Below, piece by piece: positions 9,627 through 11,606 of a stretch of 13,845 nt of DNA. The translations under genes and the position numbers were made by a program. Source of the DNA: a virus; UHGV virus genome UHGV-0175259; one strand, written 5' to 3'. The notes below the pieces were generated by a model, which made no database searches, had not been told where the DNA came from, and saw only the letters and a list, made by a program, of their open reading frames with translations. Within the stretch, counting starts at the first letter, position 1. Every line of letters starts with the position of its first letter.

Positions 9627-11606
9627 ATGACAGACATTACAGCCAATGTTGTAGTGAGCATGCCTTCGCAACTCTTCACTATGGCTCGTTCTTTTAAAGC
9701 CGTAGCCAATGGCAAAATTTATATCGGGAAAATTGACACTGACCCTGTAAATCCTGAAAACCAGATTCAGGTTTATGTGGAGAACGAAGATGGCTCTCAC
9801 GTTCCTGTTTCGCAACCAATCATCATTAACGCTGCTGGTTACCCGGTATATAACGGGCAGATTGCCAAATTCGTTACCGTGCAAGGCCATTCTATGGCTA
9901 TTTATGATGCGTACGGTGTGCAGCAGTTCTATTTTCCTAATGTTCTGAAGTATGATCCTGATCAGCTACGGCAAGAATTACAGGGGAGCGCAGGAGCCAT
10001 TATCGTTGGTGGTGCTATTCTCGAATGCTCATCCGTTGAACAGGCCCAATCAATATTAGGGTTAACAGATGGGAAAAAGGTTAGAACTTATTATTATAAT
10101 GTTCCAGTTGTAACAGATTGGGTGTTTACAACTGAAAAACCACAGTCACCTATATTTTATATTTCTGCAGTTGGCGGGTATCTTATTTTAATGACGCCTA
10201 ACTTCGCTTCCGCTGGCATTATTGAAGGTGAATATGTTCCGCTAAACGCCGCACATAACCGTAATGTAATTCAAAAACTGGTAAGAGACACAAGATTCAG
10301 TAAATTTGAATATGGTGCAACAGGTACTTTTTATGTTCTTGGATCTATTCATCCATTACGAGATAATATAGAAATACACCACGAAGCTGGGGTTACAGTT
10401 ATGGGGCGTTACGATGACCCCACGGTAGGGCCAGAAATTATGGGGTTAAACTCCGGGGGCATGTGGTCCTTTGCACATTTTCTTAACCCTGATGCAACTG
10501 TTTGGGATGACAATAACTACACAATTACAGCTGTTATGAAAAATGTTACCTACATTCTTAACGGCAAGATAGGTACAGAATATAACTCCATTCATTCTAA
10601 CCCGCACAACAATAACCCTATTGGTTTCTTTACTTGTGAAAACTGCAGCGTTGTCGGCACTGGCGGGGTTATTGGGTCTGACCACCGCGGCATTAATGTA
10701 GATGGAGGGGGCGATAATTGCCGTATAGATATCGGGTACGCCACGGGGACAAGCAACAACCCGCTTCAAATGAAAATAAACTCCGAGCGCTATGCTTTTG
10801 TTAGAGTTGGTGCTGTTTATGGCATTAAATTTGATGGCGGGCAAACAAAGGCTGTGGTGTGGTGCAGCGGCGGGCGTGTAGATGTGGAAGTTGGTAACTA
10901 CCGGTGGGATGGGGTGAATAAGCCAATCCTCGCTTACGGCAACGGTTGTCAGGAAATAACTCTAAAAGCTGGCATAATATCCGGCGTTTCGCAATTAATA
11001 CGTCAGTACAACACCCCCGTGGGTAGGGTTTTGTCCGCATGGGTTAATCATACAGACTCTCTCATAAACAAAGCAGAAGATCCTGACAAGGCGGGTGTGA
11101 CCAAGATTTCTGAGATTCGAGGGGTACACGCAGTTGACGCGGTACTAACCAGTGCATTCTTTGATGAAACTAAACTATCAACTCAAGAGGTGGTTATCAT
11201 ATGTGATAATAATTTTAAAAAAGCAAGTAGTTCATTTGTTTATTTTAAAGGAAAAACATCATCAGGCGCAATAACATCATGGTACTCGCAAAATAATATA
11301 GACCCATCTAACATAACTGATTTTTCTGATTGGAATATAAAAATAGGACAAAGTGGATTATTATCCATATCTGGATTATCATTTTCATATAAAATAAATA
11401 GAAGGTTTCAGTTTTTATCTGTTCAGTTTGTTGATAGCGGAGGTACAGAACGAGTCATAACTATACCAATAGTTATGACACTGGCAACAACGACAACTAC
11501 TAGTTACATTGCAGGAACTAGCAACTTAAGTGTGACTAGAGTGGGAGATACGTTATCTGCAGTATTAAGCGCAGGTAGCTTGCGCTTTGCTAAGGAGCAC
11601 AATTAA
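9627..11606 (+). CDS. Tailspike protein: P22 gp9-like N-terminal head-binding domain fused to a non-P22 receptor-binding/enzymatic domain
   Basis: First ~110 aa ([43 protein letters not shown]...[11 protein letters not shown]...VLKYDPDQ) match P22 tailspike as I recall it; the remaining ~550 aa are unrelated to the P22 endorhamnosidase domain. SD GGAG 9615..9618. Confidence 0.9.

Follow-up and report, generated by a model that had tools for sequence, protein, structure and literature searches.

The window examined here, the whole stretch of 13,845 nucleotides (nt) of the virus genome UHGV-0175259, carries on its plus strand an open reading frame (ORF) of 659 amino acids (aa) without internal stops (9627-11606). 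It is very probably the O104/K9 tailspike gene of a P22-like (Lederbergvirus-type) temperate phage, left over in a decaying prophage of Escherichia coli and carried there by linkage to an acyltransferase gene. The tailspike gene is a recombinational mosaic: its head-binding domain comes from the P22-like pool, its beta-helix core recurs, at up to 100% nt identity, in lytic phages of O104 hosts that are sipho-, myo- or T7-like, and its AT-rich C-terminal domain moves as a single block together with the O-antigen acyltransferase gene behind it. An earlier note, made from the letters of this DNA, had read the gene as a chimeric tailspike that was retained as an orphan.

First, the N-terminal part and the setting of the gene are those of the gp9 family of P22-like tailspikes. 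The P22-type head-binding (tail-hub docking) domain of Pfam, PF09008 (Head_binding), covers aa 1-113 (9627-9965, plus strand) with E = 1.4e-66 over model positions 1-113 of 113, and it is the sole Pfam match of the protein. In a sequence search of the PDB, the solved N-termini of the Sf6 (gp14) and P22 (gp9) tailspikes match with E = 1.5e-64 and 1.5e-50, respectively. At the DNA level, nt 1-339/354 of the gene are 88-93% identical to the tailspike genes of HK620, CUS-3 and Sf6, and the likeness then ends (at nt 354 for CUS-3). The earlier note had stated that the first ~110 aa resemble P22 gp9 and that the rest is different, and the Pfam boundary and the end of PDB and DNA likeness at about aa 118 agree with it. 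The gene also has a predicted beta-helix receptor-binding domain (RBD) and lies after immI and before a conversion gene, as expected of this family.

The full tailspike gave no match beyond about aa 118 in the PDB sequence search, so that the fold of the remainder had to be predicted. In an AlphaFold2 (AF2) model of the monomer, the RBD is predicted to form a right-handed parallel beta-helix, with structural matches to CBA120 TSP2, K2-2 TSP and Sf6 TSP as well as to GH28, GH110 and PL6 enzymes, all at ~10% sequence identity. Behind the head-binding domain, a segment common to the prophage alleles comprises the linker and the N-terminal part of the RBD (aa 114-201; 9966-10229, plus strand). It is followed by the beta-helix core with a GC-richer patch at aa 322-515 (aa 202-515; 10230-11171, plus strand), delimited by nt identity to lytic-phage alleles and by the AF2 model, and by the AT-rich C-terminal beta-sandwich domain of the 'FAKEHN' variant (aa 516-659 and stop; 11172-11606, plus strand). 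In the RBD alignment, D352 and D504 (D234 and D386 in RBD numbering) are invariant, and H353, D359, D419 and E514 are conserved in at least 90% of the sequences; these six are candidate catalytic residues. A prediction of beta-helix and active site had been proposed in the earlier note as a check: the beta-helix is predicted, and for the active site conservation offers only these candidate acidic and histidine residues. An endosialidase was also considered, since O104/K9 contains sialic acid and the N-terminus of the CUS-3 tailspike is alike, and was rejected because the protein has neither a GH58 beta-propeller nor a Peptidase_S74 domain and its predicted fold is a beta-helix. In a virion, a tailspike trimer would be attached by its N-terminal 113 aa to the tail hub of gp4 and gp10, the beta-helix (aa about 120-515) would bind and probably cleave the sialic-acid-containing O104/K9 polysaccharide, and the C-terminal beta-sandwich would close the trimer. 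We infer the trimer formation and the enzymatic cleavage in the particle, and likewise the lack of expression in the remnant.

Second, the specificity can be assigned from a published relative. The closest one is the 659-aa tailspike of an E. coli O104:H4 prophage (EGR74047 / WP_000129924.1), which differs at 23/659 aa and 118 nt (636/659 identical; 96.5%). Its aa 114/118-659, fused to the R2 pyocin fibre (pyocin AvR2-O104.1), killed all tested O104 strains and one O9:K9 strain and did not kill other serogroups, and resistant mutants lacked the O-antigen (Scholl et al. 2012, PLoS One 7:e33637; PMC3303846). The O104 O-antigen and the K9 capsule are the same polymer. The pyocin result reports targeting of this polysaccharide, not its hydrolysis (PMC3303846). 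A subtype of O104 receptor-binding proteins (RBPs) has been defined by an identity of 30% or more across no less than 60% of the RBD (Virol J 2023;20:174), and the window tailspike falls into this O104/K9 subtype with 96% identity over 100% of the RBD to P0001, the representative of the O104:H4 cluster. The blastp search for glycan specificity that had been suggested earlier thus arrives at an RBD of the published O104/K9 type, and binding of O104/K9 by the window allele is assigned here from the 96.5%-identical allele.

The distribution of the RBD among hosts is consistent with this specificity. It is present in 24 of 5426 complete E. coli genomes, namely three MRE162 clones, 18 records of 55989, O104:H4-labelled or same-allele strains, and three genomes with a 79%-identical allele, one of which, NCTC9104, carries the O104 cluster. 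The test of the host polysaccharide was made on the closest complete genome, MRE162, in place of the window's own strain. MRE162 possesses neuB, neuC, a cytidylyltransferase, a GT52 sialyltransferase and O104-family wzy and wzx genes beside an O8/O9-type wzm/wzt cluster, from which it is assigned an O8/O9:K9 genotype. The O104/K9 biosynthesis cluster lies ~20-45 kb from the prophage site, beyond the his operon (L004, MRE162 1780000-1811500; L025, NCTC9104), and the wzx proteins of MRE162 and NCTC9104 have an identical accession. A single large recombination segment could thus have carried both the locus for the polysaccharide and the prophage by which this polymer is targeted and modified.

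Third, the RBD is found on different N-terminal anchors. A search with aa 119-659 returned full-length homologues at 93-100% coverage, and four kinds of anchor are represented: the P22 head-binding domain, PF18668 (Tail_spike_N), the T7-type fibre N-terminus (PF03906) and an unannotated siphovirus anchor. The contig of homologue P0002 (L018) also has a sheath-initiator gene and carries two PF18668 spikes, and the anchor of P0002 weakly resembles 146-kb coliphages; homologue P0003 (L019) is on a Kagunavirus-like siphovirus contig. The T7-like Kayfunavirus CLB_P1, which was isolated on the O104:H4 strain 55989 and infects O104:H4 strains, matches nt 367-1570 of the tailspike gene at 88.8% nt identity. 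CLB_P1, the Kagunavirus-like RBP and the PF18668-anchored RBPs of the O104 subtype (Virol J 2023;20:174) have the same beta-helix core as the window, but differ from it in their anchors (T7 fibre N-terminus, PF18668 or siphovirus) and in a higher-GC C-terminal domain of the 'YVLHN' variant; in that domain the metagenomic alleles P0002 and P0003 have ~50% nt identity to the window. The receptor-binding gene of CLB_P1 (KC109329; L015 2335-4613) is annotated as two proteins, gp17 and gp17.1. Its homologous reading frame crosses all three frames within about 20 codons, and in the re-sequenced record OZ035730 the same match is 2 nt shorter (1204 vs 1206 nt). Because of these frame jumps and the shorter record, the split is probably a sequencing artefact and not an adaptor-plus-RBD arrangement, as it was read in a 2023 paper.

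The base composition of the gene changes with its segments. GC content and GC content at third codon positions (GC3) are 0.43 and 0.42 in aa 1-118, 0.41 and 0.29 in aa 119-201 (with the lowest block, aa 142-171 at about 10050-10139, at 0.30), 0.40 and 0.33 in aa 202-321, 0.48 and 0.47 in aa 322-515 (10590-11171), and 0.34 and 0.22 in aa 516-659 (11172-11603). For comparison, the acyltransferase gene has 0.34 and 0.28, and the other prophage genes range over 0.45-0.51 and 0.44-0.55. The variance of GC3 between 30-codon blocks of the tailspike gene was matched by 0/5000 codon permutations. In the GC-richer zone glycine is abundant as well; since GC3 carries the signal too, amino-acid content alone is insufficient to explain it. 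The composition shifts pointed out in the earlier note are thus real and its coordinates close, and the sliding composition is not uniform.

A codon alignment of the window tailspike against five alleles provides a map of the mosaic. Aa 1-111 are 88-96% nt identical to the prophage alleles of O104:H4 and P0005 (L016), and aa 112-201 are 98-100% identical to the same two alleles, while lytic-phage alleles reach 53-81% over aa 114-171. From aa 202 to about 500, identity is 92-100% (mostly 97-100%) to P0002 and 93-100% to P0003; to the O104:H4 allele it is 79-90% over aa 352-500. Aa 531-659 are again 98-100% identical to O104:H4; identity to P0002 and P0003, whose C-terminal domain is the alternative 'YVLHN' variant (as in CLB_P1), is mostly 33-58% there. 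The synonymous divergence (dS) from the O104:H4 allele accordingly jumps along the gene, from 0.35 (aa 1-118) to 0.044 (aa 119-321), 0.74 (aa 322-515) and 0.010 (aa 516-659). The breakpoints coincide with the composition steps. This coincidence, together with the four kinds of anchor, upholds the modular exchange that had been proposed from composition.

The 3' end of the gene belongs to a larger block. Against O104:H4, near-identity (~100%) extends from about 11212 through the acyltransferase gene to about 13835; against L016, which has the P0005 allele, the near-identical block starts at about 11500. Thus, the left edge of the block varies, and both breakpoints lie inside the 3' part of the tailspike gene. 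GC3 of the window's C-terminal variant is as low as that of the acyltransferase gene (0.22-0.28), and the alternative variant has 0.38-0.41. The idea that the C-terminal part was co-acquired with the downstream gene stands as far as the common block and the matching GC3 go. For the whole AT-rich C-terminal domain, it is upheld only in part, given the start at 11212 in one comparison and at about 11500 in the other.

The element that harbours this gene is a degraded P22-like prophage between E. coli sbcB and dacD. Its order is int, a xis-like gene, early-left genes, an S24-type repressor gene, a cro-like gene, cII, O, a cut gene for a DnaB-like helicase, ant, the tailspike gene and the convergent acyltransferase gene. 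Between sbcB and dacD, no nin, late-regulator, lysis, terminase, portal, coat/capsid, hub, needle or ejection genes were found, in line with the earlier statement that no capsid or tail-hub genes are left; therefore, the tailspike is not part of a particle made by the window element. A deletion junction at 8516/8517 accounts for this: the nin, late-regulator, lysis, virion and mnt/arc genes were removed, other sbcB-site prophages cease to be alike at 8517, and from 8516 onwards there is again likeness to MRE162 and to the prophage of O104:H4. With everything lost between the 3' end of the helicase gene and a point shortly before ant, the tailspike would have become a non-functional leftover, and its intactness would be due to the recency of the deletion and to the adjoining acyltransferase gene, which persists across lineages. 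The window is 99.94-100% identical to strain MRE162 over 1-6570, 7359-7722 and 8516-13845. An identical architecture in MRE162 was considered and rejected, since MRE162 is without the stretches 6571-7358 and 7723-8515 and has a P63C fragment, mnt and arc there instead (L001 14933-16645). The window fits a group of draft or metagenome contigs (L006, L008, L009, L012 and L014) that are collinear with it, an architecture hereafter called type A.

The same tailspike family occurs in prophages that have kept their virion genes. Strain 55989 has an apparently complete P22-like prophage, in which the tailspike is accompanied by genes for lysis, terminase, portal, coat, gp4, gp10, needle and ejection. 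At the same sbcB/dacD site, NCTC9104 carries an apparently complete prophage with a 75%-identical allele, and in L016 (with a full set), L030 and L032-L034 virion genes are present beside the same tailspike family. The order ant, tailspike, acyltransferase is found in the window and in MRE162 (with dacD of the chromosome next) and in the prophages of 55989, NCTC9104 and L016 (with the attachment site next). The 2011 outbreak strain has kept the virion genes and has lost the regulatory, replication and lysis region in an IS1-flanked deletion. The tailspike remains intact in at least five different deletion architectures: type A of the window (helicase 3' end to just before ant), type B of MRE162 (from the middle of the helicase gene to the P63C gene, mnt and arc being still present), L007 and L010 (further deletion of window 7779-8964), L035 (cro to ant) and 1070/13 (an IS1-flanked deletion reaching into ant). 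Types A and B are not derivable from each other and therefore represent independent deletions.

In other genomes, the tailspike gene is being lost. In L028 and L029 (each with one similar place), it starts at nt 181 and is joined to an inverted helicase fragment, and in L027 and six similar places it starts at about nt 139; these tailspikes are without their first 46-60 codons, and the acyltransferase beside them is identical. In L022-L024, whose prophages still have ejection-protein genes, a tailspike allele 96.6% identical to the window's is interrupted after nt 1114, where the contigs end (L022 7114-7169). The inserted sequence starts TGATCTTACCCAGCAATAGTGGACACGCGG, presumably an IS3-type terminal repeat by its look, to which no search was directed. 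The 90% protein cluster of the tailspike also holds C-terminal fragments of 356 and 169 aa. By the contigs compared, the deletion series converges on the acyltransferase gene and the tailspike gene is eroded from its 5' side, so that the unit which persists across lineages would be the acyltransferase and not the tailspike. Since identical acyltransferase genes stand beside 5'-truncated or split tailspikes, the tailspike is not the protected unit. The picture of a specially retained orphan does not hold, for this is a published O104 tailspike that occurs in the apparently complete prophages of 55989 and NCTC9104 and is elsewhere truncated or split beside an intact acyltransferase. The earlier note had itself named a known tailspike of a complete phage family as the finding that would overturn its reading, and this is the case here.

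Several points weigh against this reading of the gene. Its 23 substitutions relative to the O104:H4 tailspike are clustered in the beta-helix (aa 295-512) and could alter the fine specificity. Cleavage of O104/K9 is a prediction for every member of the group, and the pyocin data show targeting, not hydrolysis. Identical intact copies of the ORF occur in 23 contigs, among which there are several different deletions; this could be read as selective retention, although the look-up finds only exact full-length copies and is biased in this respect. Selection on the acyltransferase gene, for its part, is suggested by its persistence, and in one contig, L006 (GCA_015476745.1; 12051-13960), otherwise window-like with a single gap, this gene is called as pieces of 30 and 613 aa, which could reflect a real frameshift or an assembly error.

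Intactness might also mean that the tailspike was domesticated as a free protein that binds or depolymerises O104/K9 and, together with the acyltransferase, edits the host's own surface polysaccharide, with effects on chain length, biofilm release or superinfection exclusion. The ORF is indeed intact in several independent deletion derivatives and at two chromosomal sites, and the ratio of nonsynonymous to synonymous divergence (dN/dS) from the O104:H4 allele is about 0.07. As a test of selection on the orphan, however, this ratio is uninformative: it stems from working phages, the whole of the divergence is older than the deletions, and no difference has arisen since then among the orphan copies. 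The protein has no signal peptide and no export partner, its N-terminus is a domain for docking to a phage hub, and lysis genes are missing from the window element. An intrinsic terminator, which has a GC-rich stem of 8 bp and then a TTTTTTAT run, lies between ant and the tailspike gene (9545-9571, plus strand), the late promoter and the antiterminator genes are deleted together with the late regulator, and a promoter scan from the terminator to the start codon found no sigma-70-like site, which is a weak negative. Truncated and split tailspikes beside an intact acyltransferase in other genomes speak against domestication as well. We therefore regard it as very unlikely, and the free depolymerase suggested in the earlier note finds no footing in a gene without signal peptide or promoter match and directly behind a terminator.

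A second possibility is that the tailspike is supplied in trans to the particles of another resident or infecting P22-like phage, a form of phenotypic mixing. P22 heads can be completed in vitro by added free tailspike. Many P22-like phages of E. coli have head-binding domains with 88-93% nt identity to that of the window, and such a domain is present in 1147 of 5426 genomes. MRE162, however, has a single head-binding-domain gene (one matching place in its record), and no late promoter is left for co-expression with the late genes of a helper, so that this seems extremely improbable.

The third possibility, also raised in the earlier note, is that the orphan persists as a reservoir for recombination, from which phages would take the RBD module by way of the head-binding domain on one side and the 3' end with the acyltransferase flank on the other. 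The patchwork of the gene is in its favour, with most of aa 202-500 97-100% nt identical to the tailspike of the sheath-initiator contig and 93-100% to the Kagunavirus-like one between prophage-like flanks, and so are the two breakpoints in the 3' part of the gene. It is also favoured by the presence of the ant-tailspike-acyltransferase module in two prophage backbones with different integrases, with a trace left at the junction: in MRE162, past the window end (L001 22021-22070), ~60 bp identical to the 3' end of the argW-type intS stand between a repeat tract and dacD. This intS stub in a prophage with a different integrase shows an import of the module into the sbcB-type prophage from an argW/intS-type phage. 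But the independently deleted types A and B carry an identical tailspike, and therefore the patches were acquired before the virion genes were lost. Furthermore, a phage infecting the host must already recognise the host surface, which makes a gain doubtful, the host has no benefit that would explain retention, and other lineages are losing the tailspike. A reservoir function is thus an unlikely reason for persistence, and a leftover linked to the acyltransferase gene remains the preferred explanation.

The acyltransferase gene itself (11677-13587, minus strand) encodes an AT3-SGNH protein of 636 aa from an ATG at 13587, with PF01757 at aa 14-335 and PF19040 at aa 403-631. It differs by 2 nt of 1911 from the O104:H4 copy, and the exact protein was found in 74 index blocks and at two integration sites. 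It is ~33% identical to the O-antigen acetylases that two P22-like Salmonella phages, g341c (gene 15) and BTP1 (GtrC-BTP1), encode behind their tailspikes and that have the same two-domain architecture, position and orientation; the substrate here, unlike theirs, is presumably the O104/K9 repeat unit. It is thus presumed to be an O-acetyltransferase of the O104/K9 polysaccharide and a lysogenic-conversion gene. Scholl et al. (2012) proposed the gene as an acetylase and remarked on its retention in prophage remnants (PMC3303846), and Neu5Ac and derivatives of it, for example Neu5,7,9Ac3, are reported constituents of the O104 antigen (PMC7685785).

Upstream of the acyltransferase gene, at a distance of about 200 nt from its start, a tandem repeat of an octamer, (AACTATTA)n, begins at 13787 and runs off the window end at 13845 (no strand; L001 21917-22020 in MRE162); in argW-type prophages it is located at the intS stop codon. 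In otherwise ~100% identical loci it has 13 (MRE162), 10, 9, 8, 7, 5 (O104:H4) or 4 copies. Judged from this variation, the copy number could change the level or phase of acetyltransferase expression. A promoter scan between the repeat tract and the acyltransferase start found no sigma-70-like site, again a weak negative. A bolder proposal is that tailspike, acyltransferase and octamer region form a domesticated polysaccharide-editing cassette, kept by O104/K9 E. coli, in which the hypervariable (AACTATTA)n would switch or tune the acetyltransferase and a tailspike expressed at a low level or under stress would trim K9/O104 polymer or release it. It is highly improbable; if true, such a cassette would change phage sensitivity and immune recognition.

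Among known systems, the E. coli O104:H4 prophage is the nearest. Its tailspike has the same length and domain order, the ant-tailspike-acyltransferase module is the same, and the hosts make the same polysaccharide. The O104:H4 prophage sits at argW/intS, whereas the window prophage sits at sbcB/dacD with its own integrase; the beta-helix patch aa 322-515 of the window comes from another lineage, being up to 100% nt identical to lytic-phage alleles; and all virion genes are deleted in the window, while the outbreak strain keeps them and 55989 looks complete. The tailspikes of P22, Sf6, HK620 and CUS-3 resemble that of the window in the head-binding domain and the beta-helix RBD (predicted in the window), and their genes likewise follow immI and precede a conversion gene (gtr, oac or neuO). 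Their RBDs, in contrast, have no sequence likeness to the window's, with ~10% identity in structural alignments, and they target Salmonella O-antigen, Shigella flexneri Y, O18A1 and polysialic acid, whereas the target here is O104/K9. CUS-3 has an endosialidase beta-propeller and an S74 chaperone, and the window tailspike has neither despite its sialic-acid-containing target.

Other features of the window are as follows. The int gene (347-1525) is the sbcB-type prophage's own integrase gene, and in the search for attL and attR the longest repeat common to both prophage flanks has 13 bp. The gene for the DnaB-like replicative helicase (7372-8580, plus strand) is 3'-truncated, with a Pfam DnaB_C match to only positions 1-184 of 255. 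The antirepressor gene ant of the immI region (8604-9527, plus strand) has PF10547 and PF10548 matches. Missing from the window variant are mnt, arc and the region of the promoter Pant, whereas MRE162 keeps both Arc-family genes; ant stands directly behind the helicase fragment in the window and is so placed for transcription from the early rightward operon. A 13-bp inverted repeat (11620-11654, no strand), read from the sequence, separates the tailspike gene from the convergent acyltransferase gene and is probably a bidirectional terminator.

The specificity of the tailspike, the modularity of P22 type, the presence in remnants and the retention of the acetylase gene were all published in 2012; the mosaic at allele level, a second integration site and the decay series extend this knowledge by small steps. 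In the map of the mosaic at the level of bases, steps in composition mark the joints of recombination. There is evidence that a single RBD core is exchanged among phages of O104/K9 hosts, both temperate podoviruses and lytic ones of the sipho-, myo- and T7-like kinds, and the natural deletion series points to the acyltransferase as the persistent unit. The window allele and the alternative C-terminal domain are also ready-made variants for pyocin and phage engineering against O104/K9.

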